NCBI GenBank assembly: GCA_903843285.1
Contig: CAIMPC010000007.1
Location: 92,730-156,729 of the forward strand
Length of the DNA: 64,000 nucleotides
Direction: 5' to 3'
Origin: Candidatus Omnitrophota bacterium
GTDB taxonomy: Bacteria; Omnitrophota; Gorgyraeia; 2-01-FULL-45-10
The notes beneath the pieces are model-generated. The model did not search any database. It worked only from the letters and a program-made list of their open reading frames with translations, and was not told where the DNA came from. Within the stretch, counting starts at the first letter, position 1, and each line of letters opens with the position of its first letter. The translations under genes and the position numbers were made by a program. Below, piece after piece: positions 177-50,906 of the stretch.

Positions 177-968
177 ATTATGAAAAATTTAATTAAATAT
201 TTAATGCACTGTCTTCAGGACTGCATAAGCTTTATCATGTACATCTTCTTGGCCTGGATGAGTAAGAGGCGTCCGGTTACGCTGGTCTACCACTCCGTAG
301 GCAGGGTGGACCCATCGCAGGACCCGTACAGGCTGAGTATCATTCCCGAAAGATTTGAGGAGCATCTGAAGATAATCTCAAAATCCAGGGATGCAGTGAA
401 GATCTCGTTCGATGACGGATATGGGAATAATTACGATAGCGTATTTCCGTTATTGGAGAAGTATGGCCTGACAGCTACTATATTCCTGATAACCGATTTT
501 ATAGATGGTAAGATCGTATCTCAGAAATTTGGCGGAAGAGGCCTATCATTGAGGCCCCTTACCTGGGATGAGATAAAAGCTATGGATAGGGCGGGCATTA
601 TATTCGGTTCTCATACAAAATCTCATCCAAAACTATCCTCTTTATCCCGCGATGCTGTCAGGGAGGAGCTTATGGGCTCAAAAGAGCGTATCGAGGAATT
701 GCTCGGTCATAAGATATATGGCCTGGCATATCCTTCGGGCTACGGCGGCTCATTTAACCCTATGGTAACGGAGGTTGCGAAGGAGGTAGGGTATAAATTT
801 GCCTATACAAACATGATGGGAAGCAATAATTACGGCAAAGAGGAAGGTTTTGGGCTTCGAAGAGTACGAATATATAGCGAAGATGGCCCTATGAAGCTGA
901 AGATGAAGCTGAGGGGGGCCTACGACTGGGTCGATCTGCCCTTTATTCAGCGCCTATTCGTAGCTTGA
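177..968 (+). CDS. polysaccharide deacetylase (NodB-homology / carbohydrate esterase 4) family protein
   Basis: NodB-type motifs FDDGYGNNY, TATIFLITDF, HTKSHP in the translation. The ORF track starts at GTG 147; ATG 177 is preferred because the upstream frame stops at 172, but the start is uncertain. Confidence 0.7.
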   Translation: MMKNLIKYLMHCLQDCISFIMYIFLAWMSKRRPVTLVYHSVGRVDPSQDPYRLSIIPERFEEHLKIISKSRDAVKISFDDGYGNNYDSVFPLLEKYGLTATIFLITDFIDGKIVSQKFGGRGLSLRPLTWDEIKAMDRAGIIFGSHTKSHPKLSSLSRDAVREELMGSKERIEELLGHKIYGLAYPSGYGGSFNPMVTEVAKEVGYKFAYTNMMGSNNYGKEEGFGLRRVRIYSEDGPMKLKMKLRGAYDWVDLPFIQRLFVA

Positions 969-993
969 CAGGATGGACAATAATAGATAAAAT
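965..993 (+). promoter_or_regulatory. sigma70-like promoter: -35 TTGACA (965-970), 17-nt spacer, -10 TAAAAT (988-993)
   Basis: Read directly from the sequence, in the 100-bp gap upstream of the radical SAM gene at 1070. Same architecture as the promoter at 23929-23957. Confidence 0.55.
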
Positions 994-1069: not shown

Positions 1070-1972
1070 ATGAATAAACTAAGCTGCATAAAAGCACGGC
1101 CGGATCAAAATTACGTAGCCTATTTTCTTACGTTGGCATGTAATCTTCGCTGCCCGTATTGCATTAACATGCATAACGGTGGACCGAAAAAGGCATCTAT
1201 TGAGAGACGCCACCTGACTGCCGATGAATGGATAAAGGCCGCCGACCGCCTCGTGCTGAGGGACGACCTGCCATTGACTCTTCAGGGAGGCGAGCCGACA
1301 TTACATAAAGGCTTTTACGACATAGTGAATAAGGTCAAAGAGTCTATAAAGATGGACCTATTGACCAACATGCATTTCGATACTGACGAATTTATAAAAA
1401 ATGTGCCTGTCTGGCGGTTTACCCGGAAGGCGCCGTATGCGTCCATTAGAGCTTCCTATCATCCGGGACAGAATAACATAGATGAGCTTATTAAGAAGAC
1501 TTTTAAGCTGCAGGATGCGGGTTTCAGGGTAGGTATCTATTCGTTATCGAGCCCCGATGTAAAGACTAAGGAACATGTAGAGGCGGTGCGGGCCAGATGC
1601 CTGAAAGATGGTATAGATTTCAGATATAAAGAGTTCCTAGGAGAGTGGGATGGAAAACTGCACGGAATGTTCAAATATGATGGTTCTGTCATGGGGAGAG
1701 ATACGAGATGGTGCGAATGCAGGACCACAGAGCTCATCGTAGATCCAGCCGGCCATGTCTATAAATGCCACGCCGACCTATACAAGGGCAGGTCTCCTAT
1801 AGAGCATATATTGGATGAAGATTTTAACGGCGAATCCCTCCGGGAGTTCAGGCCTTGCGATAAATATGGTGACTGCAATCCTTGCGATGTTAAAGTTAAA
1901 ACCAACAGGTTTCAGATATTCGGGCACACAAGCGTCGAGATAAGAAATATTAAGAGGCATGATGGCGGATAA
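1070..1972 (+). CDS. radical SAM protein with C-terminal Cys-rich (SPASM/twitch-like) region
   Basis: CNLRCPYC (CxxxCxxC) motif near the N-terminus. C-terminal WCEC...C...CDKYGDCNPC cysteine cluster. Confidence 0.7.
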   Translation: MNKLSCIKARPDQNYVAYFLTLACNLRCPYCINMHNGGPKKASIERRHLTADEWIKAADRLVLRDDLPLTLQGGEPTLHKGFYDIVNKVKESIKMDLLTNMHFDTDEFIKNVPVWRFTRKAPYASIRASYHPGQNNIDELIKKTFKLQDAGFRVGIYSLSSPDVKTKEHVEAVRARCLKDGIDFRYKEFLGEWDGKLHGMFKYDGSVMGRDTRWCECRTTELIVDPAGHVYKCHADLYKGRSPIEHILDEDFNGESLREFRPCDKYGDCNPCDVKVKTNRFQIFGHTSVEIRNIKRHDGG

Positions 1973-11074: not shown

Positions 11075-12199
11075 ATGTATAAAACAGACATTGTGATAAT
11101 AGGGGCCGGCGTTATCGGATTGGCTGTCGCGAATGAACTTAGCGATCTGTCTAAAGATATAGTTGTTCTGGAAAAGAACGATAGTTTTGGCCGTGAGACA
11201 AGCTCCAGGAATAGCGAAGTCATTCATGGCGGGATATATTATATGCCCGGCAGCCTTAAAGCCTTAATGTGCGTACGGGGCAGGGAGCTCTTGTATGAAT
11301 TCTGCGCGAATAACAAAGTGCCTAATAAGAAGACGGGTAAGCTTATAGTCGCTACAGAGAAGGAGGAGGTCGGCTCGATTGCATCACTCTTCAGCAATGC
11401 GCGTCAGAACGGGGTTAAGGGCTTGAGGATCATCGGCCGGGAAGAGATCAGTGTTATGGAACCGGAGGTTCGCGGAATAGAGGCGCTGTATTCCCCTGAA
11501 ACGGGGATAGTCGATTCCCATAGTCTCATGCAGCGGCTGCTGGACAGGGCTAAAGCTAAAGGCGTTTCGGTGGTTTTTGAATCCGAGGTCACGGCTATAA
11601 GAAAAGACAAAGATATTTATAACGTTACGGTAAAGGGCGGGAATGAGACGACGGCCTTATCGGCAAGGGTCGTGGTCAATTGCGCCGGCCTCGATTCAGA
11701 CCTGGTAGCCGCTATGACGGGGCTCGATATAAAAGAACGTAAATATGAGCTGCAATACTGTAAGGGGCAGTATTTTCGTCTTAATAGAAAGAAGGCCGGG
11801 CGCGTAAAGATGTTAGTGTATCCCGTGCCAAATCCGGTATCCGGCGGGCTTGGTATACACGCCACCCCTGACCTTGCCGGAGGACTCCGATTAGGCCCCG
11901 ACCATGAAAAGATGAAGGGGCGTATTAAGGATTATTCAGTGGATGAGTCGAGAAAGAAGGATTTCTGCGCATCTGTCAGCAAGTTCCTGCCTTTCATTGA
12001 AGAAAGAGATGTCTTTACCGATACAGCAGGAATAAGGCCCGAATTACGCGATGACGCAAACGGCTATCGCGATTTTATCGTAAAGGAAGAGGCCCCGGCC
12101 GGACTTCCCGGATTTATCAATATGGTAGGGATAGAATCTCCGGGGCTGACTGCTTCACTGGCGATGGCCGAGCATGTGAGAAAGCTTGTCAGGCTGTAA
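11075..12199 (+). CDS. FAD-dependent oxidoreductase (L-2-hydroxyglutarate oxidase / GlpA-like family)
   Basis: N-terminal DIVIIGAGVIGLAVA dinucleotide-binding motif and SSRNSEVIHGGIYY motif typical of LhgO-like enzymes. Confidence 0.7.
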   Translation: MYKTDIVIIGAGVIGLAVANELSDLSKDIVVLEKNDSFGRETSSRNSEVIHGGIYYMPGSLKALMCVRGRELLYEFCANNKVPNKKTGKLIVATEKEEVGSIASLFSNARQNGVKGLRIIGREEISVMEPEVRGIEALYSPETGIVDSHSLMQRLLDRAKAKGVSVVFESEVTAIRKDKDIYNVTVKGGNETTALSARVVVNCAGLDSDLVAAMTGLDIKERKYELQYCKGQYFRLNRKKAGRVKMLVYPVPNPVSGGLGIHATPDLAGGLRLGPDHEKMKGRIKDYSVDESRKKDFCASVSKFLPFIEERDVFTDTAGIRPELRDDANGYRDFIVKEEAPAGLPGFINMVGIESPGLTASLAMAEHVRKLVRL

Positions 12200-12236
12200 A
12201 TCGTTTTGACTATAGACATAGTTAGTCGCGGCAGTG

Positions 12237-12242
12237 TATAAT
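12237..12242 (+). promoter_or_regulatory. TATAAT -10-like hexamer in a 101-bp intergenic gap (no convincing -35)
   Basis: gtgTATAAT sits 58 nt upstream of ATG 12301. A TTGACT lies 25 nt upstream, which is too far for a canonical -35. Confidence 0.25.
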
Positions 12243-12300
12243 TTATGATTGCGCTGGTTTACATCCGGCACAGGTAATTTAATTAACCGGAGCATGATTT

Positions 12301-13836
12301 ATGGCTGAACATAAGAGCGTTATCCTGATATATCCGAAAACCGGTATGGATTTCGGATCGACTGTCGCCCCGCCCCATTCGCTATTGACTATTGCTGCTC
12401 CATTGCACAGCGAAGGCTATCGAGTAAAGATAATAGATCAAAGAGTGGACAGAGACTGGAATAAACATCTGGCCGATGAGCTGATGCTTGACCCTATATG
12501 TATCGGGATATCCTCTATGACTGGTATGCATATACATTTTGCTGTTGAAGCGGCCAGGATCGTCAGGTCATTAACCAAGAATCGCGCGGTGCCTATTGTG
12601 TGGGGAGGCCCGCATCCGTCCATATTGCCGGAGCAGACACTTAATAGCGATTACGTGGATATAGTATGTGTCGGTGAAGGGGATATCACATTTAATGAAC
12701 TTGTAAAGGTCCTCGAGAAAGGTGGGGACCTGTCGGGAGTAAAGGGAATTGCGTTTAAGGATGGCAATAAAGCAGTAGTGAATTCTCCTGCTCCATTGAT
12801 CGACGTGGAAAAGCTACTGCCCGTACCATGGGAACTGATCGACGTGGAAAAGTATATTCATCCGGATATGTATCTTAAAGAAAGCTCCCGAACTTTAGAT
12901 ATAGGGCAGACGAGCAGGGGTTGCCCTTTCAGCTGCGGTTTCTGCTGCAGCGCCAGCCTGAGAATGAGGAAATGGCGCGCGATGTCAGTAGAGCGAAGCC
13001 TGCAGGCGATCGTGGATCCGATCAGGAGATTTAAGCTTAACGGTATCTGGATAAGGGATGACGAGTTCTATATTGACAGAGAAAGAGCTTCACGGATATG
13101 CGAGGGGATAATAAGAGAGAAGCTAAGCATAAGCTGGTATACATCAGGAACGAGAGTCGATGTATTTAATAAGGCATCCGATGAGCAGACGTCCCTGCTA
13201 AAGAAGAGCGGCGCGTACGTTCTGAAATATGGGGCCGAATCCGGCTCAGACAGGATCCTTAAGATGATAGAGAAGGGCATAAAAGTCGAAGATACTATCA
13301 GGGCCAACCTTAAGGCAAAGAAACATGGCATAACTCCGGCTTTTTCTTTGATGATAGGCTTTCCCACTCAGACGTTCGAAGAGATAGATGCTACCATTGA
13401 GCTTATGTTCAGGCTTAAGAGAGATAACCCCAGCGCGCAATTTGAGGCCATAGCGACCTATACCGCATTGCCGGGAACCCCGATGTACGATCTGGCTCTT
13501 AAGAACGGTTTGAAACCGCCTGATAGTTTGGAGGGATGGATTAACTGGAATTTTATCGATTATGACCTGGAGGGAGAGAGGATCCCGTGGTTCGATCTTG
13601 ATGCAAGAAGAAAGATAGGGAATATATGCTATTTAAGCATCCTGGCTAACGGGTTTCGCAATGCCATTGACAGCATAGAGAATGTGCTATTAAGGATGGT
13701 GGCGAAAGCATTTTATACGCCCATTAGTCTGTTTTATCGTCTCAGGCTTGAGCGAAAATGGTATAATTTTTCATGGGATCTCATGATCATAAGATTCATA
13801 AGGGCGAAACTTTTCTACAAGGGTTATTCCAAATAA
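12301..13836 (+). CDS. cobalamin-binding (class B) radical SAM protein
   Basis: B12-domain motif WGGPHPS. SRGCPFSCGFC radical SAM motif. Paralog of 47596 and 54824. Confidence 0.8.
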   Translation: MAEHKSVILIYPKTGMDFGSTVAPPHSLLTIAAPLHSEGYRVKIIDQRVDRDWNKHLADELMLDPICIGISSMTGMHIHFAVEAARIVRSLTKNRAVPIVWGGPHPSILPEQTLNSDYVDIVCVGEGDITFNELVKVLEKGGDLSGVKGIAFKDGNKAVVNSPAPLIDVEKLLPVPWELIDVEKYIHPDMYLKESSRTLDIGQTSRGCPFSCGFCCSASLRMRKWRAMSVERSLQAIVDPIRRFKLNGIWIRDDEFYIDRERASRICEGIIREKLSISWYTSGTRVDVFNKASDEQTSLLKKSGAYVLKYGAESGSDRILKMIEKGIKVEDTIRANLKAKKHGITPAFSLMIGFPTQTFEEIDATIELMFRLKRDNPSAQFEAIATYTALPGTPMYDLALKNGLKPPDSLEGWINWNFIDYDLEGERIPWFDLDARRKIGNICYLSILANGFRNAIDSIENVLLRMVAKAFYTPISLFYRLRLERKWYNFSWDLMIIRFIRAKLFYKGYSK

Positions 13837-13837
13837 G

Positions 13838-14809
13838 ATGAATGCCATATCTAAAGACGTATCGATCGAGCTCTACAATATTATGATGCGGATCAGGCTG
13901 GTGGAGCTTAAGATCGAGGAACTATATGCGCAAGATGAGATGAGGACGCCGATTCATCTGTGTGTAGGACAGGAGGCGATAGCAGCCGGAGTATGCGCAA
14001 ATCTAAATAAGGCAGACTATGTATTCAGTAATCATAGAGGACATGGCCACTACATAGCAAAGGGCGGCGATCTGAGAGCTATGGTCGCGGAGCTCTACTG
14101 TAAGGAGACGGGGTGTTCAAGGGGCAGGGGCGGATCGATGCACCTAATCGATACGTCGGTAGGCTTCATGGGATGCTCTTCGATAGTAGGCGGCAGCATA
14201 CCGATAGCGACAGGCGCGGCCCTGAACTCACTTCTGTGCAAGGATGGCAGGGTGTCAGTAGTCTTCTTCGGTGATGCGGCCTCCGAAGAAGGCGTTCTGT
14301 TCGAAAGTATGAACTTCGCAGCCTTAAAAAATTTACCCATCGTCTATATCTGCGAAAATAATTTTTACTCTGTTTGCTCTCACCAAACCGCCAGACAGGC
14401 AAACTGCGACATATCAATGAGGCCAAAAGCTTTCGATATATCTTCCTGTAAAGTCGACGGCTCGGAAGTCATGGAAGTATATGCAGAGTCAAAAAAGGCC
14501 ATCGATAAAGCGCGATCCGGCAAGGGTCCGTCTTTTTTAGAATGCCGCGCATATCGCTGGAGGGGCCACGTGGGTCCCGGGGATCCGCAGAAGGATTCCT
14601 ATAGAGAGCAGAAAGAATGGGTAGAATGGATGAAGAAAGACCCTCTTAAGAAGTTTGAGGACTCTTTAACGAAAAGCGATATTTTGGATGACGCGTGCAT
14701 AAAAAATATCAGATGTAAGATCGATGAGGATATTTCAGAAGCTTTTGAATTTGCCAAAAATTCCCCATTGCCGGACAGAAGAGAGCTTGAAAAATATCTA
14801 TATGGTTAA
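13838..14809 (+). CDS. thiamine-diphosphate-dependent dehydrogenase E1 alpha subunit-like protein (pyruvate/acetoin dehydrogenase E1 alpha family)
   Basis: NHRGHGHYIAKGGDL...GCSRGRGGSMHL motifs of E1 alpha. Confidence 0.75.
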   Translation: MNAISKDVSIELYNIMMRIRLVELKIEELYAQDEMRTPIHLCVGQEAIAAGVCANLNKADYVFSNHRGHGHYIAKGGDLRAMVAELYCKETGCSRGRGGSMHLIDTSVGFMGCSSIVGGSIPIATGAALNSLLCKDGRVSVVFFGDAASEEGVLFESMNFAALKNLPIVYICENNFYSVCSHQTARQANCDISMRPKAFDISSCKVDGSEVMEVYAESKKAIDKARSGKGPSFLECRAYRWRGHVGPGDPQKDSYREQKEWVEWMKKDPLKKFEDSLTKSDILDDACIKNIRCKIDEDISEAFEFAKNSPLPDRRELEKYLYG

Positions 14810-14814
14810 ATAAT

Positions 14815-15858
14815 ATGCCCTGGACAAAATTTATCATTGAAAAACAAGAACCGGGCTACGATGAGCACGCAGGTGGATCCGATCGGAAATTGACCGTACC
14901 TGAGGCCATAAGAGAGACGCTGGACCGGGCGCTTGCGATAGATAAGCAAGTCTTCGTAATGGGTCAGGGAGTTGACGATCCTTCGGGCATGTTCGGGATG
15001 ACGCTGGGCCTTCAGGAGAAATATGGTAAGGAGAGAGTATTTGATACGCCTTTGTCAGAGAATGCGCTGACGGGTATAGGCGTGGGGGCGGCTCTTACCG
15101 GGTCCAAACCCGTGTATTTTCATAACAGGCCTGACTTTCTGCTTTTAGCGATGGATCAGATCGTCAACCATGCAGCCAAATATAGTTACATGTTCGGAGG
15201 TAGAGTAAGGATCCCGTTAGTAATAGTCGCGATAATAGGGAGAGGGTGGGGTTCCGCCGCGCAGCATTCGCAGTCTCTGCACGGGTTATTTATGCACATA
15301 CCTGGCTTGCGCCTCGTCATGCCCAGCACGGCATACGACGCGAAAGGGTTATTGGCCGCCAGCATTGCTGATGGGAACCCGGTCATCTTTATTGAGCATC
15401 GCTGGCTGTTTAAACACAGGAGTTATGTTCCTGAGGAGCTGTATACGATCCCACTGGGAAAGGGCCTGGTGCGCCGTAAAGGAAAAGATGTGACGATAGT
15501 AGGTATATCCTATATGGTGATAGAGGCATTGAGGGCGGCGGAGGAGCTTAAAGGTGAGGGGTTTGATGCGGAGATTATCGATCCCAGGACGCTGAGGCCG
15601 CTTGATGAAGAGATTATCCTTGAATCAGTAAAGAAGACCGGGCATCTCGTGATAGCCGATACGGACTGGAAGACCGGCGGTGCTGCATCCGAGATCGCCT
15701 CGATGGTAGCGCAAAAGGGTTTTAAATATCTTAAGGCACCGGTAAAGATAGTAGCCTGGCCGGATGTGCCGGTTCCGGGTAGCTATGTCCTGGAAGAGGC
15801 TTTTTACCCGGGTAAAGACGATATTATAAGATTAGTAAAGGATCTGGTAAATATATGA
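14815..15858 (+). CDS. E1 beta subunit-like protein (transketolase-like Pyr and C-terminal domains)
   Basis: FVMGQGVDDPSGMFGMTLGL...ENALTGIGVGAALTG motifs. C-terminal transketolase_C-like segment. Confidence 0.75.
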   Translation: MPWTKFIIEKQEPGYDEHAGGSDRKLTVPEAIRETLDRALAIDKQVFVMGQGVDDPSGMFGMTLGLQEKYGKERVFDTPLSENALTGIGVGAALTGSKPVYFHNRPDFLLLAMDQIVNHAAKYSYMFGGRVRIPLVIVAIIGRGWGSAAQHSQSLHGLFMHIPGLRLVMPSTAYDAKGLLAASIADGNPVIFIEHRWLFKHRSYVPEELYTIPLGKGLVRRKGKDVTIVGISYMVIEALRAAEELKGEGFDAEIIDPRTLRPLDEEIILESVKKTGHLVIADTDWKTGGAASEIASMVAQKGFKYLKAPVKIVAWPDVPVPGSYVLEEAFYPGKDDIIRLVKDLVNI

Positions 15859-16787
15859 AGATATTAGTTACTGGGGCGGCAGGATACATAGGGTCTGTTT
15901 TGGTTCCCGAATTGTTGAAAGAGGGATTTCAGGTCATCGCGTTAGATAATTTCATGTATAATCAGGCGTCATTACTGGATTGCTGTAATAATAAGAATCT
16001 GACCATAATCCGCGCAGATGTGCGGGACAAGGGAGTGGTTTCTAGATGTTTGAAAGATGCCGATGTCATCATCCCGTTAGCATGCTTTACAGGAGCTCCT
16101 CTTTGCCAGATCAATCCATTCGAAGCTAAGAGTGTGATTTTGGACGCGATAAAGATGATGCTGGATCTGCGCAGTAAAGAACAGATCATCATATATCCCA
16201 CCACAAATAGCGGTTATGGGATAGGCCAGAAGGGAATATACTGTACCGAAAAGACTCCTTTAAAACCCGTATCTCTGTATGGTAAGCTGAAGGTTGAGGC
16301 TGAGAAGGCTCTGCTGGATGTGGGCAACTGCGTTACTTTAAGGCTCGCTACGGCATTTGGGATCAGCCCGAGGATGAGGCTGGACCTCCTGGTAAATGAC
16401 TTCACCTATCGCGCCGTAAACGATCGGTTCTTAGTGCTCTTCGAAGCTCATGCAAAGAGAAATTATATACACGTCCGCGATGTAGCGAAGGCCTTTATTC
16501 ACTGCCTGAATAAGTTCGATCGGATGAAGGATGAGCCGTATAATGTCGGTTTAAGCGATGCCAATCTCAGTAAATGGGAGCTGTGCGAAAAGATCAGGGA
16601 ACAGGTCCCTGACTTCTATTTCATAGAGGCGAATATCGGGGAGGATCCGGATAAGAGGGACTATATCGTCAGCAACCAAAAGATAGAGAAGACCGGATTC
16701 AGTACGAGCATGTCAATGCATGAAGGTATTCTGGAACTGATAAAGGGATATAAGATCATCAGAAGGAACCAATATTCCAATGTCTAA
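15855..16787 (+). CDS. NAD-dependent epimerase/dehydratase (extended SDR)
   Basis: ILVTGAAGYIGS Rossmann motif and YGKLK (YxxxK) catalytic motif. Confidence 0.75.
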   Translation: MKILVTGAAGYIGSVLVPELLKEGFQVIALDNFMYNQASLLDCCNNKNLTIIRADVRDKGVVSRCLKDADVIIPLACFTGAPLCQINPFEAKSVILDAIKMMLDLRSKEQIIIYPTTNSGYGIGQKGIYCTEKTPLKPVSLYGKLKVEAEKALLDVGNCVTLRLATAFGISPRMRLDLLVNDFTYRAVNDRFLVLFEAHAKRNYIHVRDVAKAFIHCLNKFDRMKDEPYNVGLSDANLSKWELCEKIREQVPDFYFIEANIGEDPDKRDYIVSNQKIEKTGFSTSMSMHEGILELIKGYKIIRRNQYSNV

Positions 16788-17532
16788 TATAAATATGGCA
16801 GATAAAGTAACCCTGATAATCCCTACGCTGAATGAGATAGATGGCGTGCGCGTTATCATGCCGAGGATAAAACCCGAATGGTACGATCAACTTATAGCCC
16901 TTGACGGCGGTTCGACCGACGGGACTGTCGAGTATCTGAGGGAGCGTGGTTATGAAGTCGCTTTTCAAAAAGCTGTAGGGTTAAGGAAAGCGTTCATTGA
17001 AAATTATAAGAACGTCAAAGGCGATATAATGATCACCTTCAGCCCCGACGGTAACTCTGTCCCGGAATTAATACCCGCGCTAATTGCCAAGATCAGAGAG
17101 GGCTATGACATGGTCATAGTCTCCAGATATCTGGATGGTGCCAAAAGTTACGATGATACTTTTATTAGCGGATTGGCAAACAAATTCTTCAAAAAAACCA
17201 TCGGCTTACTTTTCGGGTATAAGTACACGGACGCGCTAGTCATATATAGGGCGTACAGGAGAGAGATAGTGGATGAGCTGGGCATCCTTAAGCCGCGATC
17301 CGACTTCTATGAAAAGCACATAGGAAGATATGTAAGCTGGGAGCCTCAATTATCTATCCGCTGCGCAAAGAGAAGATTAAAGATCGCCGAGATCCCGGGA
17401 GACGAGCCTAAAAGAATAGAAGACGAGAGCAAGGTGGGACTGCGGATGCTGCCATCCAGCAGGATAAGACATTTCAGGGTCGGCTTTGCGTGTATAGCCC
17501 TGATCGTAGATGAGTTCTTCAGATTTCGTTAA
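16780..17532 (+). CDS. glycosyltransferase family 2
   Basis: VTLIIPTLNE...ALDGGSTDGT GT2 signature. Confidence 0.7.
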   Translation: MSNINMADKVTLIIPTLNEIDGVRVIMPRIKPEWYDQLIALDGGSTDGTVEYLRERGYEVAFQKAVGLRKAFIENYKNVKGDIMITFSPDGNSVPELIPALIAKIREGYDMVIVSRYLDGAKSYDDTFISGLANKFFKKTIGLLFGYKYTDALVIYRAYRREIVDELGILKPRSDFYEKHIGRYVSWEPQLSIRCAKRRLKIAEIPGDEPKRIEDESKVGLRMLPSSRIRHFRVGFACIALIVDEFFRFR

Positions 17533-17568
17533 ACAGATCAGGCGAAAGGATGGTTAAGGACTAGACAT

Positions 17569-18576
17569 ATGGTTATAAGCAGAACGCCTTTTCGTATATC
17601 TTTCTTTGGAGGGGGGACGGATTATCCTGTGTGGTATAAAGATAATCGCGGTGCGGTATTGACGGTCTCAATAAACAAGTATTGTTATCTGACCTGCCGT
17701 TATCTTCCGCCGTTTTTTAAGCATAAGTCCCGGATCATCTGGTCTGAAATAGAATACGTGAAAGGCATATCCGAGATTCGTCATCCATCGGCCAGGGAAT
17801 GTTTGCGATTTATGGACATCAAGAAAGGTGTGGAGATACATCATGACGGTGATCTGCCTGCCAGGACTGGAATGGGCTCGAGTTCTTCTTTTACGGTCGG
17901 ATTACTTCATGCGCTTTATGCGTTAAAAGGTATCATGCCCACTAAGAGGCAATTGGCGCTTGATGCCATTCACCTAGAACAGGAAGTGATGAAGGAGAAC
18001 GTCGGCTCCCAGGACCAGGCACAAGCCGCCTTTGGCGGATTTAATCTGATAGAATTTGGCGGAAAGGACCATATTATGGTCAGGCCGATGACCATAAATC
18101 CTGATAGATTGGCGCATTTTCACTCTCACCTGATGCTTTTTTATACGGGTCTTTCCAGGACCGCTTCGGAAATAGCGGCTGAGCAGATAAGATGCACCCC
18201 CTACAAGAAGAAAGAGCTGCATATGATGCATGGATTCGTAAATGACGCCATAGAGATCCTAAATGGTAATTCCCGACTGTCAGAGTTCGGGAAACTGTTG
18301 CATGAAAATTGGCTGATCAAGCGAAGCTTGTCCCATAAGATCTCGACAACCGCTATTGACCGAATGTATTCAACCGCTATAAGGGCGGGCGCCTCAGGGG
18401 GCAAACTTCTTGGTGCCGGCGGCGGAGGATTTATGTTAATATTTGCTAAGCCCGAGAATCAGCATGAGATAAGAGAGAAACTAAAAAAACTTTTATACGT
18501 GCCCTTTCGGTTTGAAGATCTGGGTAGCCAGATAATCTTTTACAGTCCCGGAGACTCTTTAACAAGTCCTGTTTAG
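17569..18576 (+). CDS. GHMP sugar kinase (D-glycero-D-manno-heptose 7-phosphate kinase HddA-like)
   Basis: RISFFGGGTDYP N-terminus, PARTGMGSSSSF GHMP ATP-binding motif, LLGAGGGGFM C-terminal motif. Confidence 0.7.
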   Translation: MVISRTPFRISFFGGGTDYPVWYKDNRGAVLTVSINKYCYLTCRYLPPFFKHKSRIIWSEIEYVKGISEIRHPSARECLRFMDIKKGVEIHHDGDLPARTGMGSSSSFTVGLLHALYALKGIMPTKRQLALDAIHLEQEVMKENVGSQDQAQAAFGGFNLIEFGGKDHIMVRPMTINPDRLAHFHSHLMLFYTGLSRTASEIAAEQIRCTPYKKKELHMMHGFVNDAIEILNGNSRLSEFGKLLHENWLIKRSLSHKISTTAIDRMYSTAIRAGASGGKLLGAGGGGFMLIFAKPENQHEIREKLKKLLYVPFRFEDLGSQIIFYSPGDSLTSPV

Positions 18577-18599
18577 AACTAATTAAGGGCGGGTAGGAT

Positions 18600-19610
18600 A
18601 TGACCGACAAGAGAGATGTTTCACGCGTACTGATAACCGGCATCTACGGTTCAGGCGCCAGTTACCTGGCGGAATACATAGTTCAGAACCATCCGAAGGT
18701 AGAAGTCCATGGGATAGCACGTTGGCATAGCACTGCGCAGATTAAGAATATAGAAGCGATCCGTGATAAGCTGTCGATCCATGAAGCAGATCTTATGGAT
18801 CTCGGTTCCGTCCTAAACGTAATGGAGAGCGTGAAGCCGGACGTTATCTTTCATTTGGCGGCTTACGCAAACGTGAGGGCCTCATTCATCACGCCATATA
18901 GCGTCATGAGCAATAACATCCTTGGGACCGTTAACCTGTTTGATGCTGTCAGGCTGGCAAAACTGGATCCTATGATCCAGCTTTGCAGTACTTCTGAAGT
19001 GTACGGGCAGGTCGATCCAAAAGACGTCCCGATCAAAGAAGGTGCACCGATACGGCCGGTCAATCCGTATTCAGTATCAAAGGCAACCCAGGACCTATTG
19101 GGGTTCAGTTACTTTAAAAGTTACGGTATGCGTATTATCCGCACCCGCATGTTCACGTATATAAATCCCCGCAGAACAGATCTTTTCGCCACATCATTCG
19201 CAAAGCAGATCGCCTGGATCGAGAAAGGCATGCAGAAGGAGCTATTGCACGGCAACCTGGACTCTGTGCGCACGATAGTCGATCCGCGGGACGGAATGCG
19301 AGCATATTGGGACGCGATAATGTTTTGCAAATTCGGTGAAACATATAATATAGGCGGCACGGTCTCTACGACGGTCGGAGAGGTCCTGAAGCGCTTAATA
19401 TCAATGAGTGATCAGGCTATACCGACACGGTTGGATCCCGCCCTTCTGCGTCCGGCGGATGTAACTCTGCAGATACCATGTGTAGATAAATTTGTAAGCC
19501 AGACTGGATGGAAGCCGAGGTACACGATGGAAGAGAGCCTCGAGTATCTTCTTTCTTATTGGCGGAAGGAAGCCGAAAAGGCCGTTAAGATGAGAGAGTT
19601 CGACAGCTAG
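18600..19610 (+). CDS. GDP-sugar 4,6-dehydratase (Gmd / GDP-manno-heptose dehydratase DmhA-like)
   Basis: ITGIYGSGASYLAEY...VHGIARW, STSEVYG, PYSVSKA and NPRRTD align with the ITGITGQDGSYLAE...VHGIKRR, STSELYG, PYAVAKL and NHESPRRG blocks of Gmd. Confidence 0.75.
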   Translation: MTDKRDVSRVLITGIYGSGASYLAEYIVQNHPKVEVHGIARWHSTAQIKNIEAIRDKLSIHEADLMDLGSVLNVMESVKPDVIFHLAAYANVRASFITPYSVMSNNILGTVNLFDAVRLAKLDPMIQLCSTSEVYGQVDPKDVPIKEGAPIRPVNPYSVSKATQDLLGFSYFKSYGMRIIRTRMFTYINPRRTDLFATSFAKQIAWIEKGMQKELLHGNLDSVRTIVDPRDGMRAYWDAIMFCKFGETYNIGGTVSTTVGEVLKRLISMSDQAIPTRLDPALLRPADVTLQIPCVDKFVSQTGWKPRYTMEESLEYLLSYWRKEAEKAVKMREFDS

Positions 19611-20324
19611 ATGAGAAGCGAAAATGATCCCGGCAGGATCGATGCCGTAATCCTCTGCGGAGGTAGAGGCGAACGTCTTAAGCGGATAGTTAAAGATAGG
19701 CCGAAGCCGATGGCCGATATTAACGGACGGCCATTCCTTGACATGGTTATAGATCATTTGTCGGACTACGGCTTTAAGCGGGTGGTATTGTGCCTGGGCT
19801 ACAAGGCCGACGTGATCCGTAAGTATTATTCAGGAAGGCACAGCAAAATAGAGATACTTTTTTCTGCGGAAGCATTTCCTCTGGGCACGGCAGGGGCGAT
19901 TAAGAATGCGGAGGCACTGATAGGCAGCGATCCGTTTCTCGTCATGAATGGTGATTCATACTGCTCCATAAATCTGCAGCGTTTCATAGATTTCCATATA
20001 AAAAAGAAGAATGTTCTTTCGATGGCTTTAACCAGATCCGTTGAAAATGAAGATTGCGGCTTTGTTCGTCTGGATCGTTCGCGAAAGATCACCAGTTTTA
20101 ACGAAAAGAATCGCACCGATAAAGATAGATACGTGAATACCGGAATATACTTATTTTCTAAGAAAGCCCTTAAGTTAATACCGCCAGGAAAGAAAATATC
20201 CCTGGAATATGAGGTCATACCAAAAATATTGAACAAAAAAATCTACGGATTCGTAACGGATGAAAGATTGACGGACATAGGCACGCCTGGCAGGTACAGG
20301 AAAGCAAAGATATGTTTTAAATGA
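19611..20324 (+). CDS. sugar-1-phosphate nucleotidyltransferase (heptose-1-phosphate guanylyltransferase HddC-like)
   Basis: AVILCGGRGERLK...KPMADINGRPFL nucleotidyltransferase N-terminal signature. Confidence 0.7.
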   Translation: MRSENDPGRIDAVILCGGRGERLKRIVKDRPKPMADINGRPFLDMVIDHLSDYGFKRVVLCLGYKADVIRKYYSGRHSKIEILFSAEAFPLGTAGAIKNAEALIGSDPFLVMNGDSYCSINLQRFIDFHIKKKNVLSMALTRSVENEDCGFVRLDRSRKITSFNEKNRTDKDRYVNTGIYLFSKKALKLIPPGKKISLEYEVIPKILNKKIYGFVTDERLTDIGTPGRYRKAKICFK

Positions 20325-20364
20325 TTATTTTTGATCGGTTATCGGTAAGGAAATAACAGGAGAG

Positions 20365-21603
20365 ATGAGCGTGGCTGAAAAGAAGAACGGAAAGCGACCG
20401 GTCACAGTGCCTTTTGGGACTTTGTCGATTAATGGTAAGTCCAGGGCTCTGGTGAATAAGGTTCTCGACTCCAATAGGGTCTCTTGCGGAAAATATGTCA
20501 GAGAGTTCGAGAAGAGGTTTGCCGAGCTGGTCGGTGCTAAAGAAGCAGTTGCGCTAAGCTCAGGCACGGACGCAGACGCGCTTGCCCTGGCGGTGCTATA
20601 CGACTTCGGCGCGCATCGAGGGGACGAGGTCATAGTTCCGGCCCTGTCGTTCGTAGCAACGGGCAACGCGGTGCTGCAAGCCGGTTTTACTTCTGTCTTT
20701 GTCGACATTGAGAGAAATACACTAAATATAGACCCTTTAAAGATCGAAGCGGCGATCACTAATAAGACCAGGGCCCTGATGCCGGTGCACTTGATCGGTA
20801 AACCCGCAGCCATGGACGCGATAAATAGGATAGCTAAAAGGCATAAGCTCATAGTTATCGAAGACGCTGCAGAGGCGCATGGGGCGGAATACAAAGGACG
20901 TAATGCCGGCACGCTCGGTGACATGGCGGCCTTCAGCCTTTATGTGGCGCACATCATAACGTCGATCGAAGGCGGCATAGTCACAACCAACCGCAAAGAT
21001 TATGCGGAGATATTAAGGTCGCTTCGGTCGCATGGCCGGGCATGTAAATGCGATAAGTGCGTGCTCAATACCGCTTCAGCATATTGTGCCAAGAGATTTA
21101 AATACGGATCCAGTAATGATATAAGGTTTGTTTTTGAGCGCATAGGATATTCAAGTAAAATGAACGAATTGGAGGCCGCAATAGGCCTTGGCAACCTGAG
21201 CGACTACCACAGCATATTAGCTCGTAGGAGAAAGAACCTGGGTTATCTTACCGATAAGTTTAAAAGATTCGCTCCTTACTTGCTGACGATCGAGGCTGGT
21301 GCCAAAGAAAAAATAGGGCCGCACGCGTTTCCGGTGATAATCCAGGAGTGTGCTCCGTTCACCAGGGAAGATATGACCGCTTATCTGGAAAAAAATGGCG
21401 TTGAGACGAGAACATTATTTTCGTCTATGCCTACCCAGTGCCCCGGCTACAAATTTTTGGGTTACGAATTGGGTGATTTTCCGAATGCCGAGTATATAGG
21501 CAATAACGGATTTCATATAGGTGTCCATCAGGATCTGAAACAGAGGGAGCTGGATTACTTCCTCAAGTCTGTAGCGGATTTTTTGTCAGATAAAATAAGG
21601 TGA
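20365..21603 (+). CDS. DegT/DnrJ/EryC1 family PLP/PMP enzyme of the 3-dehydratase type (ColD / E1-like)
   Basis: The active-site block SLYVAHIITSIEGG has His where aminotransferases carry the Schiff-base Lys, as in ColD and CDP-4-keto-6-deoxyglucose 3-dehydrase E1. It follows a Gmd-like gene. There is an extra 4-Cys insertion CKCDKC...C. Confidence 0.7.
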   Translation: MSVAEKKNGKRPVTVPFGTLSINGKSRALVNKVLDSNRVSCGKYVREFEKRFAELVGAKEAVALSSGTDADALALAVLYDFGAHRGDEVIVPALSFVATGNAVLQAGFTSVFVDIERNTLNIDPLKIEAAITNKTRALMPVHLIGKPAAMDAINRIAKRHKLIVIEDAAEAHGAEYKGRNAGTLGDMAAFSLYVAHIITSIEGGIVTTNRKDYAEILRSLRSHGRACKCDKCVLNTASAYCAKRFKYGSSNDIRFVFERIGYSSKMNELEAAIGLGNLSDYHSILARRRKNLGYLTDKFKRFAPYLLTIEAGAKEKIGPHAFPVIIQECAPFTREDMTAYLEKNGVETRTLFSSMPTQCPGYKFLGYELGDFPNAEYIGNNGFHIGVHQDLKQRELDYFLKSVADFLSDKIR

Positions 21604-21614
21604 CGTAAGATATT

Positions 21615-23885
21615 ATGGATAGAATCTCTGACAGAGCTGAATCGGTCGGGATCCCGAACCGGATCAAGACAATTTATGTATGCACAGCCGTTCTATTGAT
21701 AAGCGTATTTATAGCCCTGCTTTATCGTCCTATACAAGCCGCGTTTCACGAGCACGATCTCCTATTTATGATGCCTGTCATGTCTTCCATCCCGGCGGGC
21801 CAGTCTTTTTTTGAAAGTATAAAAGTATTTCTTTATAATCCGTACACGATGGTTTTCGGTGACCCATGGATGAATACTTATTTGTCAGTGGTGTTAGCCG
21901 TTTTTGGATTTCAAACAAAGTACTACATTTTTACGTCTATAGCGCTCCACTTTTTATGCGCTCTATTTTTGTATCTTGTCCTACGAATGATAGATTTTGA
22001 TTTCAGAGTTGCCTTTTTTTCGAGCCTCGTGTATTTAACGTTATTTATTCATTTCGGTTATTATTTCTTTCCCATGGCAACCCATCATGTCTTCGTGATC
22101 TTCTTTAGTTTACTGATCATGTACCTTTATTTTAGTACGATGAAAAAAATCGACGAAGATCGTAATTGGAGGTATTTGTTTTGGCTCACGATCTCCGCTA
22201 ACTTCCTGGCGTCTTTTTGCCAGATAACGATCCTTATTTTACCTATCGGCATTCTGTCGCACATTCTAATATCTTCAAATGACGTGGCGGATAGATTAAA
22301 AAAATACGATATCTGGATTCCTTTATTTATAACTTATTTAGGTTACCCTCTCTTGAGAACCGCTTACACGACGTTTCCGCATCTTAAGGTATTTCTTCAT
22401 AGACAAGGTGATGCCCCCGGAGGGCATTCATTGTATTTATTGCTTTTTCTGTCAGGTATCGGTTTGCTTTCTGTTCTTAGATATATTTTAAAGTTGTCCT
22501 GTAAGTATCATTTTGGCAGGATATTGAAGATTCTTTGTGTGTCGGCGATCGTGTCTTATATCGTCGCTTTTATTATCGTATTGGGCAGAAACGATCTGAT
22601 AACGCCGAGCAAGGTAAAATTATTTGATTGGCTGTCCCCGCTTAATATCTTTCGACCCATGGCGGTGATGCTCGAAGATTTTATTTTTCCTATTAAAGCG
22701 GCGTTTTCTACGGATTCAACCGTAATATTCAATGTCATGTCTAGGCATAGTGGCGCCATCGCCTTATCGTCAGCCGTATTTATGTGCGTTATTTTCATGA
22801 AGAAGTTTTTCTTCAGGCACAAAGGCCTTATAGTGATAATGATGTTTTATATCATCGCGCTTCGCTATATGCGAATTGAGACCTCTGTTATCCGGTCGCG
22901 ATATTTTATTTATGTGACGCCTCTGTTCTGTATCGTTTTCTGCTCTTCATTTATGTATATGTACGACCTTATCATTAAAAAGACCAGATTAAAAACGATC
23001 TTTCAGGAGTTCATTTTGGCTCTTATATTTATCGGGCTTTGCATACCGAATATCTTTGCTATAAAGACAGAATTATATAGAAGTAAATTCGTAAATAATT
23101 TTCTTTCGTATGATGATATCAGAGCAGCCTATATTATAAACAACGATATTAATACTTCGGGCTCCATAAGGCTCATTAGTCCGGAAAATATATTTATTGA
23201 GGGTGTTCAGCCCATGCCGTTCATTTTTAACGAGCTTTACACCCTTGAGCTGGAGGACCATTTGAAATATGATCCATTCAGATATGTCTTAGCCCAGACG
23301 CTTGACAATAGATCAGTGCTTCATGTAAGTGTCAATATGGGTAAGCCGGGCGATATGAAAGGAAAATTGTTATTTAATATTAGTGGGCCCAGGATATACG
23401 ATTCAAAAGGCTTAAATATTGACAGATTTAGCTCGTGTTTTGACGATGCTATGCGAGAGCTGAGGCTTGGCGATTACAAAAAGGCCTATGTGCTGTTCAG
23501 GAAAGCCATTGGGATGAGGCCATTTTTGCTGAATTATATATTATCCAAGAACGACTTGAAAGAGCTGAAATGTATTACTGGCGAACGTGACCTAAAAAGC
23601 TGGGTTAAAGTTATAGTGAATTATTATGAGACCACCGGTGGTAATGAAAAGAAAGCGATGAGTAACTCAGCTCTTATTAACGATGAGATAGACGAGTATA
23701 TTAGATGCATTGTTTACGCGGCATATTTAAGCTATATTGCCGGTGAGCGGGAAGAAGGCAATAGGCTCTTGGAGCAGATAAGATACATTGAAAATGACCA
23801 GAATAAGGTACTGGCATTATTGAATAATGAGTCATCAATCCAGTCTGAGCATATCTTACAAGCGTTTTCCTCGAATAGTCCTTAA
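21615..23885 (+). CDS. large polytopic membrane protein with a C-terminal soluble TPR-like region (possible GT-C-fold transferase or polymerase)
   Basis: Many hydrophobic segments in the first roughly 500 aa. C-terminal hydrophilic region with TPR-like repeats. Confidence 0.4.
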   Translation: MDRISDRAESVGIPNRIKTIYVCTAVLLISVFIALLYRPIQAAFHEHDLLFMMPVMSSIPAGQSFFESIKVFLYNPYTMVFGDPWMNTYLSVVLAVFGFQTKYYIFTSIALHFLCALFLYLVLRMIDFDFRVAFFSSLVYLTLFIHFGYYFFPMATHHVFVIFFSLLIMYLYFSTMKKIDEDRNWRYLFWLTISANFLASFCQITILILPIGILSHILISSNDVADRLKKYDIWIPLFITYLGYPLLRTAYTTFPHLKVFLHRQGDAPGGHSLYLLLFLSGIGLLSVLRYILKLSCKYHFGRILKILCVSAIVSYIVAFIIVLGRNDLITPSKVKLFDWLSPLNIFRPMAVMLEDFIFPIKAAFSTDSTVIFNVMSRHSGAIALSSAVFMCVIFMKKFFFRHKGLIVIMMFYIIALRYMRIETSVIRSRYFIYVTPLFCIVFCSSFMYMYDLIIKKTRLKTIFQEFILALIFIGLCIPNIFAIKTELYRSKFVNNFLSYDDIRAAYIINNDINTSGSIRLISPENIFIEGVQPMPFIFNELYTLELEDHLKYDPFRYVLAQTLDNRSVLHVSVNMGKPGDMKGKLLFNISGPRIYDSKGLNIDRFSSCFDDAMRELRLGDYKKAYVLFRKAIGMRPFLLNYILSKNDLKELKCITGERDLKSWVKVIVNYYETTGGNEKKAMSNSALINDEIDEYIRCIVYAAYLSYIAGEREEGNRLLEQIRYIENDQNKVLALLNNESSIQSEHILQAFSSNSP

Positions 23886-23928: not shown

Positions 23929-23957
23929 TTGACAAAGTTATCGGCAGATAGTATTAT
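23929..23957 (+). promoter_or_regulatory. sigma70-like promoter: -35 TTGACA (23929-23934), 17-nt spacer, -10 TATTAT (23952-23957)
   Basis: Read directly from the sequence in the 108-bp gap upstream of the regulator gene. RBS AAGGA lies 7 nt before ATG 23994. Confidence 0.6.
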
Positions 23958-23979
23958 CGTTTAGAACGTTATAAACGAT
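23956..23979. promoter_or_regulatory. 24-bp palindrome ATCGTTTAGAACGTTATAAACGAT (putative operator), second copy
   Basis: Same half-sites (ATCGTTTA / TAAACGAT) and same position relative to the -10 as the copy at 992-1015. Confidence 0.55.
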
Positions 23980-23993
23980 AATAAGGATAAATT

Positions 23994-24488
23994 ATGCATA
24001 ATAAGCTTGAAATGGCACAAGATAAGTTTATGGAGGGCATAGGTAAGCTGGCGGAAAGTGTTGGCGTTAGCCGCTTTATCGCCCAGTTATACGCAGTTCT
24101 ATATCTAAGTGATAGGCCTTTATCCCTGGATGATCTAGTTGAACGTCTAAAAGCAAGCAAAGGCAATATAAGCCTCAATATAAGGGAGCTTGAAAAGTGG
24201 GGAGGCGTTAAGAACATTTGGGTTAAAGGCTCACGCAAGGACTATTATGAAGCGGACCCCGATATTAAGAAATTTGTTCTTAAGAAGATCAGGTCCGGGG
24301 TCCAGAAAAGGATAGGGCAGGTTACGGATATGATGGATGAGTTTAAAGAATTGATAAACTCCGGTAATGATGAAATGGGTGACGAAGATAAGATGATAGT
24401 AAAAACGTATCATGAAAAACTGAAGAATATTGAAAATATGAAGAGCCTGGCCGACAAAGCGCTTATGCTGGCCGATAAATTATTATAA
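23994..24488 (+). CDS. winged-helix transcriptional regulator, GbsR/COG1510 (MarR-like) family
   Basis: RFIAQLYAVLYLSDRPLSLDDLVERLKASKGNISLNIRELEKWGGV...WVKGSRKDYYEA matches the characteristic HTH and RKDYYEA block of COG1510 regulators. Confidence 0.55.
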   Translation: MHNKLEMAQDKFMEGIGKLAESVGVSRFIAQLYAVLYLSDRPLSLDDLVERLKASKGNISLNIRELEKWGGVKNIWVKGSRKDYYEADPDIKKFVLKKIRSGVQKRIGQVTDMMDEFKELINSGNDEMGDEDKMIVKTYHEKLKNIENMKSLADKALMLADKLL

Positions 24489-25556
24489 GTGCGTATGAAA
24501 AAGACGAGAAAAACATGTAAGCAGAATGAAATAAGAATAGGCAAGAGACAAGTCGGTGCCGCCTATCCTCCGCTAGTGATCGCCGAGATAGGCATTAATC
24601 ACGAGGGAGTATTCGAAAAGGCCGTCAAGATGATAGACGACGCTGCCAGGGTAGGGTGCGAGTGCGTTAAGTTCCAGTCTCATATTATTGATGATGAGAT
24701 GATCCCGAATCGGGTTATCCCGGCAAACGCGAAAGAATCGATATGGGAGATAATGGATCGTTGTGCCCTGTCGGAGAATGAAGAGGCCAAGCTGAAAGAA
24801 TATACCGAATCAAAAGGGATGATATTCTTAAGTACGCCTTTTTCCAGGGCCGCGGCAGAGAGATTGAAAAGGATCGGACTTGCTGCCTATAAGATAGGAT
24901 CTGGAGAGTGCAATAATTACCCGCTGGTCGAACACATATCCCGATATGGCAAACCGGTGATCCTTTCGACAGGAATGAATAATATTAAAAGCATAGGGAG
25001 ATCCGTAAGGATATTGAATGATGCCGATGTTCCGCTTGCTATCATGCACTGCACAAGTATGTACCCTACCCCTTACAATAAGATCCGTCTGGGAGCTATC
25101 GCCGAGCTTAAAGCTGCGTTCCCGATAGCGGTGGTGGGGCTATCCGATCACTCGCTATCTAACTATCCCTGTCTTGCGGCTGTGGCTCTAGGGGCTAGCC
25201 TTATTGAAAGGCATTTTACATCCGATAAGAGATGGCCTGGACCCGATATTCCAATTTCAATGGATCCGAAAGAGCTAAGGGAGCTTATCGAGGGCAGTAG
25301 GGCAATTCACGAAAGCCTTGGCGGGTCCAAGAATATACTGAAAGAGGAGCAGCCCACAATAGATTTTGCCTATGCCTGCGTAGTAGCTACGCGCGATATT
25401 GCGGCCGGGGAGCGTTTCAGCGCTGACAATATTTGGGTTAAACGGCCTGGCACCGGGCAGATAAAGGCAGAACACTATAACAGAGTTCTGAATAAGAGAG
25501 CCAGGTCAGAGATAAAGAAGAACGAGCAAATCGTGTGGAGCAAAATAGATGGCTAA
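24489..25556 (+). CDS. neuB: nonulosonic acid (sialic acid-like) synthase, NeuB/PseI/LegI family, with C-terminal SAF domain
   Basis: PPLVIAEIGINHEG...CVKFQ TIM-barrel N-terminus and C-terminal antifreeze-like domain (ATRDIAAGERF...WVKRPGTG). Family-level call only. Confidence 0.8.
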   Translation: MRMKKTRKTCKQNEIRIGKRQVGAAYPPLVIAEIGINHEGVFEKAVKMIDDAARVGCECVKFQSHIIDDEMIPNRVIPANAKESIWEIMDRCALSENEEAKLKEYTESKGMIFLSTPFSRAAAERLKRIGLAAYKIGSGECNNYPLVEHISRYGKPVILSTGMNNIKSIGRSVRILNDADVPLAIMHCTSMYPTPYNKIRLGAIAELKAAFPIAVVGLSDHSLSNYPCLAAVALGASLIERHFTSDKRWPGPDIPISMDPKELRELIEGSRAIHESLGGSKNILKEEQPTIDFAYACVVATRDIAAGERFSADNIWVKRPGTGQIKAEHYNRVLNKRARSEIKKNEQIVWSKIDG

Positions 25557-50882: not shown

Positions 50883-50906
50883 GGTGTTATTTAACGGAGG
50901 TGTATT

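Follow-up and report, generated by a model that had tools for sequence, protein, structure and literature searches.

What does a regulator control when its gene lies in the middle of a sugar gene cluster that is 60 kb long? The window analyzed here is a stretch of 64,000 nucleotides from an uncultivated Omnitrophota bacterium, and midway in its 60-kb surface-sugar gene cluster sits a gene for a 164-residue winged helix-turn-helix (wHTH) protein, called the regulator in what follows. Our preferred reading, to which we give a probability of about three in four, is that the regulator is a MarR-type repressor that acts on its own promoter, P2, and on a second promoter, P1, 23 kb upstream. A sequence-only reading of this DNA had proposed the same, namely autoregulation by a repressor with the upstream unit also under its control, and as a model this is well supported by the comparative evidence from related genomes.

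The elements at the start of the regulator gene are listed here. Positions are those of the window.

23929 to 23934, forward strand: TTGACA, the −35 hexamer of P2, read from the sequence.
23952 to 23957, forward strand: TATTAT, the −10 hexamer of P2; the promoter matches the consensus at 11 of 12 positions and has a spacer of 17 nt.
23956 to 23979, no strand assigned: operator O2, ATCGTTTAGAACGTTATAAACGAT, which scores 33–35 bits with a position weight matrix (PWM).
23983 to 23987, forward strand: AAGGA, the Shine-Dalgarno sequence, 6 nt 5′ of the ATG.
23994 to 24488, forward strand: the regulator gene, an open reading frame (ORF) for a 164-residue Mj223/GbsR-type wHTH protein, assigned from profile and structure matches.

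O2 is a 24-bp near-palindrome in which 22 of the 24 positions are self-complementary. The nucleotides AT at 23956–23957 belong both to O2 and to the −10 hexamer, and the predicted transcription start of P2 falls within O2. The core of O2 (23959–23976) has one mismatch to the family consensus GTTTAGAACGTTCTAAAC. The TTGACA-17-TATTAT promoter at 23929–23957 and the palindrome over its −10 hexamer had both been described by the sequence-only reading and were found again, with the overlap amounting to 2 nt. Two of its details needed correction: the Shine-Dalgarno sequence is separated from the ATG by 6 nt, not 7, and the gap in front of the regulator gene is not the sole gap of about 100 nt on the forward strand, as that between 12199 and 12301 is also 101 nt long.

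The second copy of the operator lies near the left end of the window, in front of a radical SAM gene.

965 to 970, forward strand: TTGACA, the −35 hexamer of P1, with 11 of 12 consensus matches and a spacer of 17.
988 to 993, forward strand: TAAAAT, the −10 hexamer of P1, read from the sequence.
992 to 1015, no strand assigned: operator O1, ATCGTTTAAAACGTTTTGAACGAT, PWM score 32–33 bits.
1070 to 1972, forward strand: the radical SAM gene (gene 1070), first after P1 and O1 and the beginning of unit 1, a co-directional series of about 21 genes up to 23885.

O1 is also a 24-bp near-palindrome and begins on the last 2 nt of the P1 −10 hexamer, as O2 does at P2. The operator copy claimed upstream of gene 1070 is real, at 992–1015, and has the same geometry (TTGACA-17-TAAAAT with a 2-nt overlap). 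O1 and O2 are identical at 21 of 24 positions, and no match with as few as 3 mismatches occurred in 100 shuffles. When the 64-kb window is searched with O2 at up to 3 mismatches, exactly one other site is found, O1. A PWM built from the orthologous sites gives the two operators 32–35 bits; the next best match in the window, inside a coding region at 8153, scores 10.4 bits, and no weaker operator site exceeds that value. The likeness between P1 and P2 is confined to the −35 hexamer, the −10 hexamer and the palindrome, and the 17-nt spacers and the flanks are unrelated. The TGA stop codon (966–968) of the polysaccharide deacetylase ORF at 147–968 sits within the P1 −35 hexamer, so P1 is packed directly against this upstream gene.

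Phylogenetic footprinting carries the case for autoregulation. Relatives of the regulator are abundant, with hundreds of 164-residue homologs at 57–80% identity, and those that are named come almost all from Omnitrophota metagenome-assembled genomes (MAGs). An exhaustive search of representatives clustered at 50% identity returned 2271 at E≤1e-3 and 15 at E≤1e-30. The wHTH and the wing are nearly invariant in the alignment of the homologs. The footprint set consists of 80 loci (labeled L with a number) from species-representative genomes, with 10-kb flanks and 1.15 Mb in total; the best match in the species-representative collection was at 76%. The module found 5′ of the orthologs reads TTGACA, about 17 nt, TAtAAT and, 1–3 nt later, an 18-bp palindrome with the half-sites GTTTAGAAC and GTTCTAAAC. 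In closer relatives the core is extended to atc...gat, which gives the 24-mer of the window. This core follows the −10 hexamer of a consensus promoter before orthologs in about 35 species-level genomes. The distance of 1–3 nt holds with few exceptions, and the spacer and flanks of the modules are not conserved.

These sites are far more frequent than chance would allow. There are 41 with up to 3 mismatches in the 1.15 Mb, as against 0–2 (mean about 0.65) in 20 shuffles, and for 33 of them a regulator copy follows at a distance of no more than 400 nt downstream. A site is present upstream of 14 of the 18 orthologs at ≥55% identity and 10 of the 16 at 45–55%, or 24 of 34 at ≥45%. The arrangement of O2, an operator over the regulator's own core promoter, recurs in these 24 of 34 orthologs. 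Relative to the −10 hexamer the sites keep a fixed position, and they are 16–122 nt from the start codon. A scan of metagenome contigs with the exact pattern found 32 loci, 21 of them with a regulator homolog beside the site, and L106, L108 and L093 have the full promoter-operator module and no adjacent regulator. The autoregulation put forward from the single locus is supported by the recurrence of the same palindrome just after the −10 hexamer before orthologs from Omnitrophota and neighboring lineages.

The type of site also differs with the type of protein. Regulators of the ELEkWGAV/ALERYGAV type pair with the GTTTAGAAC half-site, and Elusimicrobia-type regulators (ELERWEAV...WVSG) pair with GTTTAATAC. 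Upstream of LLEE/D..LVRKVW-type proteins, which come from proteobacterial and Bdellovibrio-like MAGs, a site of this kind is absent. Because the site type tracks the protein clade, the palindrome behaves as expected of a cognate operator.

Some loci in the set have features of their own. A third half-site stands right after the palindrome (GTTTAGAACATTCTAAAC-GTTCTAAAC) at L023:225-251, L025:9944-9970, L026:4178-4204, L029:4043-4069 and L034:9929-9955, which suggests that more than one dimer may be bound there or that the palindrome has a shifted, alternative register. In L057:10619, L058:10611 and L060:10616, which are distant homologs from proteobacterial-type MAGs, the regulator gene is followed, not preceded, by the palindrome, at a distance of about 110 nt; the target in these loci may be the gene that comes next and not the regulator. 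The 327,990-nt contig Ga0209514_10000038 (L102 and L093) is listed with the regulator paralogs P0032 and P0041 and has at least two operator-bearing promoters; the one at L102:247-673 drives an AcpS-like phosphopantetheinyl transferase gene and then a regulator paralog. L023 (1–800) is labeled ‘Promethearchaeota archaeon’ and shares its bacterial sigma-70 promoter, operator and regulator with loci labeled Clostridia or ‘bacterium’ (L024–L026 and L029), whose upstream sequence is also nearly the same. It is probably a mis-binned bacterial contig.

Sequence and predicted structure both place the regulator in the Mj223/GbsR (COG1510) branch of MarR-type wHTH proteins, closest to the Mj223-like part. 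The best phmmer match among Protein Data Bank (PDB) sequences is Mj223 (PDB 1KU9; E 5.9e-23, residues 6–158), and the motifs LYAxLYLSDxPL, SKGNxS and WxKGxRKxYYEA are common to both proteins. The best NCBIfam match is CudC (NF047500, a GbsR-family model; E 7.6e-19, residues 3–146); its score, 68.2 bits, lies far below the 218-bit equivalog cut-off. Several homologs are named ‘GbsR (MarR family)’ in the annotation of the Joint Genome Institute. An AlphaFold2 model built from 34 homologs has a mean predicted local distance difference test score of 86.4. The predicted helices are residues 2–22, 27–38, 45–52, 56–68, 91–123 and 130–163, and the strands are 72–75 and 84–87. The layout is a first helix (2–22), a wHTH with a two-strand wing (27–87) and the long C-terminal helices 91–123 and 130–163, the pair that makes up the dimerization domain in this family; the predicted recognition helix segment is SKGNISLNIRELE. 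Foldseek against the PDB ranks 1ku9_A first (E 4.4e-12, 32% identity); next come 4nb5, 5jbr and a large number of MarR-type repressors and dimers, several of them solved on DNA. The length and symmetry of the palindrome fit one MarR-type dimer, as judged from the MarR family in general and from the DNA complexes in the Foldseek list. The COG1510 hallmark that the sequence-only reading had pointed out in this 164-residue protein (LSLDDLVERLKASKGNISLNIRELEKWGGV...RKDYYEA) is present, and the phmmer, CudC and Foldseek matches agree with it. Assignments to ArsR, TrmB, Lrs14 or BirA-N were dropped; the matches are below threshold and cover only the HTH.

A second genome bears on whether P1 belongs to the regulon. 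Locus L106 lies on a contig of 710,442 nt, and the contig of the regulator locus L004 is also 710,442 nt long. Two genes are driven by the L106 module, one for a DAO oxidoreductase with 66% identity to the product of 11075–12199 in the window and one for a B12-radical SAM protein with 73% identity to that of 12301–13836. L004 continues the synteny with genes like those from 13838 to 21615, then an operator and a regulator that is 68% identical to that of the window. L106/L004 thus repeats the layout of the window, in which an operator and unit 1 precede a second operator, the regulator and the NeuB module. The gene directly 3′ of the regulator gene in L009 is the DAO gene. This layout and the identically built module at 965–1015 support the earlier suggestion that the upstream radical SAM/glycan unit is co-regulated.

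The strongest rival explanation is that only autoregulation takes place, so that O1 is a non-functional or duplicated relic and the 23-kb unit is not controlled. O1 has 3 mismatches in its 18-bp core and deviates from the consensus more than O2 does; most related loci have a single site within 10 kb on either side. The orthologs of gene 1070 also lie inside operons that have no operator (P0123/L082, 79% identity; P0172/L083, 67%; gaps of 0–37 nt); at L118, another locus with relatives of this gene, the contig stops 46 nt upstream. Conservation of O1 along with gene 1070 was accordingly rejected, since the closest orthologs are within operons, and O1 marks the operon boundary of this genome rather than that gene. 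Against a relic stand the PWM score of O1, which almost equals that of O2, and the equivalent extra module before the unit-1-syntenic genes of L106/L004. The full P1 module is kept, moreover, with a perfect TTGACA, the 17-nt spacer, a −10 hexamer and the 2-nt overlap. As its spacer and flanks are unrelated to those of P2, this is the pattern expected under selection and not under recent duplication. We consider a relic O1 unlikely, at odds of several to one against.

A second alternative is that the palindrome works as an RNA hairpin in the 5′ leader, with an effect on stability or translation, or binds another factor, and that its linkage to the regulator is incidental. The full 24-mers do fold, at −6.4 and −7.5 kcal/mol (z about −3), and the common variant GTTTAGAACGTTTTAAAC would retain a G-U pair. 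The site begins inside the −10 hexamer, however, and a transcript that starts about 7 nt downstream would contain little of the left arm; from the predicted start onward, the leader is unstructured (z +0.2). Pairing is broken by asymmetric variants, such as G/A in O2 and A/C in L007 and L036, and no Rfam match was found. The position of the site is fixed to the −10 hexamer and not to the start codon, and the site co-occurs and co-varies with the regulator clades. This explanation is highly improbable. Least probable of all is that the regulator is an activator or dual regulator, as MarR-family members occasionally are, or that the palindromes are recombination sites bounding an invertible or excisable segment, given an 8-8-8 arrangement of arm, spacer and arm with a superficial likeness to the core sites of tyrosine recombinases and a discrete 23-kb block between the two copies. 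Against these readings, the promoters are already near consensus (11/12) with the site over the start in the classical repressor position, a locus has a single site in most genomes, always attached to a −10 hexamer, and no recombinase-like gene turned up among the scanned ORFs.

Several observations, besides the operator-free orthologs of gene 1070, count against a MarR-type repressor on P1 and P2. The Pfam matches of the regulator to MarR_2 (PF12802; 21.6 bits, gathering threshold 27) and HTH_5 (ArsR; 18.2 bits, threshold 22) are too low, and some of its homologs have precomputed PF12802 matches. No effector pocket was identified in the regulator. Four of the 18 close orthologs have no site directly upstream. 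In L007, L028, L032 and L036 the regulator is a later gene of its unit and the site is further upstream, by as much as 6.9 kb in L007, and no operator site was found in the L010 and L014 loci. Gene 1070 has a 54-nt leader with no obvious Shine-Dalgarno sequence. In the 101-nt gap between the DAO oxidoreductase gene and the B12-radical SAM gene (12199–12301) the sequence TAGACA-18-TATAAT at 12213–12242 (11/12) has no operator and is a possible unregulated internal promoter, through which part of unit 1 may escape control. Finally, binding, repression, the dimeric state, the roadblock and the effector are all features that we infer. In L106 the DAO and B12-radical SAM genes abut, and the operator-bearing promoter precedes the DAO gene instead.

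On the preferred reading, repression at both promoters, the regulator would bind as a homodimer to the palindrome atcGTTTAGAAC-GTTCTAAACgat, of which the window has two copies. Each copy belongs to a near-consensus sigma-70 promoter, overlaps its −10 hexamer by 2 nt and covers about −8 to +16 around the predicted start. With promoters this close to consensus and the site over the start, the position is that of a repressor. As the palindrome spans the −10 hexamer to the start, a bound repressor is predicted to block open-complex formation or promoter escape at both promoters. P2 would drive the regulator and the nonulosonic-acid module (NeuB, a NeuC-like epimerase, a cytidine monophosphate (CMP)-transferase and radical SAM tailoring enzymes), which would amount to negative autoregulation, and P1 would drive the upstream 23-kb radical SAM/glycosyltransferase/aminosugar unit. 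No terminator was flagged between the ORF at 21615–23885 and P2. In view of this and of the co-directional cluster, repressor on O2 may also be a roadblock to read-through from P1, which would insulate the two modules. Release is presumably by the binding of a small molecule that is not of the choline type. The segment that forms the aromatic cage in GbsR-type proteins is replaced in the regulator (DPDIKKFVLKKIRSG / DPDIKKFVLKKIRSGVQKR, compared with HDWYQTFTDLFSIKW in Bacillus and EDWYKSFTSIFGNKW in Terribacillus), so a choline-type ligand is not expected.

The genes around the regulator are those of sugar synthesis and transfer. Unit 1 (1070–23885) encodes radical SAM enzymes, GT9 and GT2 glycosyltransferases, a B12-radical SAM protein, a methyltransferase, split transketolase-like/E1 pairs, the DAO oxidoreductase (11075–12199), epimerases and dehydratases, a GHMP kinase, a nucleotidyltransferase, a DegT aminotransferase and a 756-residue protein. 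The ORF for the latter (21615–23885) is directly 5′ of the regulator gene and has no Pfam match; a homolog adjoins the regulator in L004 (47% identity), and another is in the same cluster in L018 (37%). The gene that follows the regulator is this one.

24489 to 25556, forward strand: NeuB-family (nonulosonic acid synthase) gene, which begins 1–7 nt after the regulator stop.

Because of this short distance the NeuB gene is in the same transcription unit as the regulator. It is followed by genes for a B12-radical SAM protein, a UDP-GlcNAc 2-epimerase, a radical SAM protein, a TylF-type methyltransferase, a CTP_transf_3 (CMP-sugar) cytidylyltransferase, another B12-radical SAM protein and HisF/HisH-like proteins. 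By their sequences, these downstream genes encode a heavily tailored pathway to nonulosonic acids. Another module of NeuB, cytidylyltransferase and aminotransferase genes is at 38.8–43.8 kb of the window.

The cluster has NeuB synthase genes at 24489 and 38833 and CTP_transf_3 cytidylyltransferase genes at 31479, 39720 and 50991. Between 1070 and 50882 the radical SAM genes of the B12-binding kind number at least six (7188, 12301, 25603, 32272, 37358 and 47596), and there are four other radical SAM genes (1070, 1959, 28181 and 42978), a density unusual for one glycan cluster; the products are probably heavily C-methylated or branched nonulosonic acids. The split transketolase/E1-like pairs are 3992/4761 and 13838/14815, and an HMGL-like/MptE-like fusion is at 49119. 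The apparent 108-nt gap 50882–50991, before the CTP_transf_3 ORF at 50991–51638, translates in frame over 33 residues and is probably coding sequence. The Pfam match of the ATG-started ORF begins at profile position 26, so the true start should be upstream, where only ATT and ATC codons are found, which suggests that the start codon is non-canonical or that the sequence contains an error.

Related loci have the same surroundings: the regulator gene lies almost always within a cluster for aminosugars or nonulosonic acids and runs in its direction. In 24 of 42, all ORFs up to 6 kb away on either side share the strand of the regulator. A NeuB-family gene is directly 3′ of the regulator in the window and in L001, L003, L008, L010 and L020, and within 10 kb of it in many others. 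The neighbors common to the window and the related loci are genes for NeuB, epimerases, DegT, radical SAM enzymes and glycosyltransferases. Neither gbsAB nor opuA/B/C genes, the neighbors of the osmoprotectant GbsR subgroup, are found near the regulator in the window or the related loci.

The 14- and 16-nt motif strings did not occur in literature searches, and searches for MarR/GbsR control of nonulosonic-acid genes turned up nothing related, judged by title. In a 2026 preprint surveying Omnitrophota genomes the terms GbsR, MarR, nonulosonic acid and ‘transcriptional regulator’ are absent. What appears to be new, from the sequence comparisons, is the context subgroup, an operator motif for the Mj223-like branch and the proposed two-promoter partition of a giant glycan cluster. 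Tentatively, and with more doubt than confidence, these may belong to an unrecognized Mj223/GbsR subgroup that spans several phyla (Omnitrophota, Elusimicrobiota, Auribacterota and others) and consists of dedicated repressors of nonulosonic-acid/aminosugar clusters, with a portable promoter-operator cassette, partition by roadblock and a nucleotide-activated sugar or another metabolite as inducer. If so, the cassette is an autoregulated internal promoter joined to a roadblock, which splits a giant cluster into separately switchable modules, and its operator motif is the first for Mj223-like proteins, which since 2002 have had a structure but no assigned function. The loci analyzed here give the Mj223-like part of the GbsR family a consistent context, the synthesis of surface glycans and nonulosonic acids rich in radical SAM tailoring. 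The pairing of regulator and operator is a concrete one in a phylum that has no cultured genetic system. As the promoters have the sigma-70 consensus, they should function in Escherichia coli reporters, and the 18-bp motif is usable for mapping regulons and for delimiting transcription units in the long one-strand glycan clusters of Omnitrophota.

The GbsR family has been divided into groups by gene neighborhood: the osmoprotectant-linked GbsR, OpuAR, OpcR and YvaV, for which an aromatic cage just beyond the wing is predicted; the cydAB-linked, sulfate-responsive CydE; and a heterogeneous group that includes Mj223 and gives ‘no consistent picture’ of its neighborhood (PMC6207618). Mj223 (MJ0223 of Methanocaldococcus jannaschii, 1KU9) is the best sequence and structure match to the regulator and of the same length class, and like the regulator it is without the aromatic-cage segment of GbsR (PMC6207618). 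It is archaeal, and no function, operator or gene context is known for it (PMC7396694, PMC6207618), whereas the regulator has a conserved operator and a consistent glycan-cluster context. The CydE/cydAB-associated repressors of Alishewanella are a GbsR subgroup that also has no aromatic cage and represses the adjacent operon (PMC6207618). Their targets are cytochrome bd genes and their inducer is sulfate; no cyd genes are near the regulator in the window or the related loci.

The GbsR-type proteins of Bacilli are dimeric repressors with A/T-rich inverted repeats as binding sites, which coincide with SigA promoters or lie just downstream of them; OpcR acts by steric hindrance and GbsR by a roadblock (PMC7396694). 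The conserved A/T-rich palindrome of 18–24 bp described here is at the position expected for target promoters of the Mj223/GbsR family. GbsR, OpcR, OpuAR and YvaV of Bacilli belong to the same family as the regulator, to which the GbsR-type Bacillus homolog L075 is 31% identical. They control osmoprotectant uptake or synthesis and sense choline or glycine betaine by an aromatic cage; the regulator differs from them in its operator sequence, in the surface glycan genes of its putative regulon and in having no cage.

The classical MarR-family repressors solved on DNA (MepR, ST1710, FabT and PefR) and also 4NB5 are of the same overall fold class by Foldseek, but their TM-scores against the regulator are 0.35–0.45, with large root-mean-square deviations outside the wHTH, and the Pfam likeness is below threshold. 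A palindrome of 18–24 bp over the −10 hexamer and start, together with negative autoregulation, is the textbook MarR arrangement. The mechanism proposed here is of this textbook type: no concept is changed by it, and the regulator would be an ordinary switch in a new setting.

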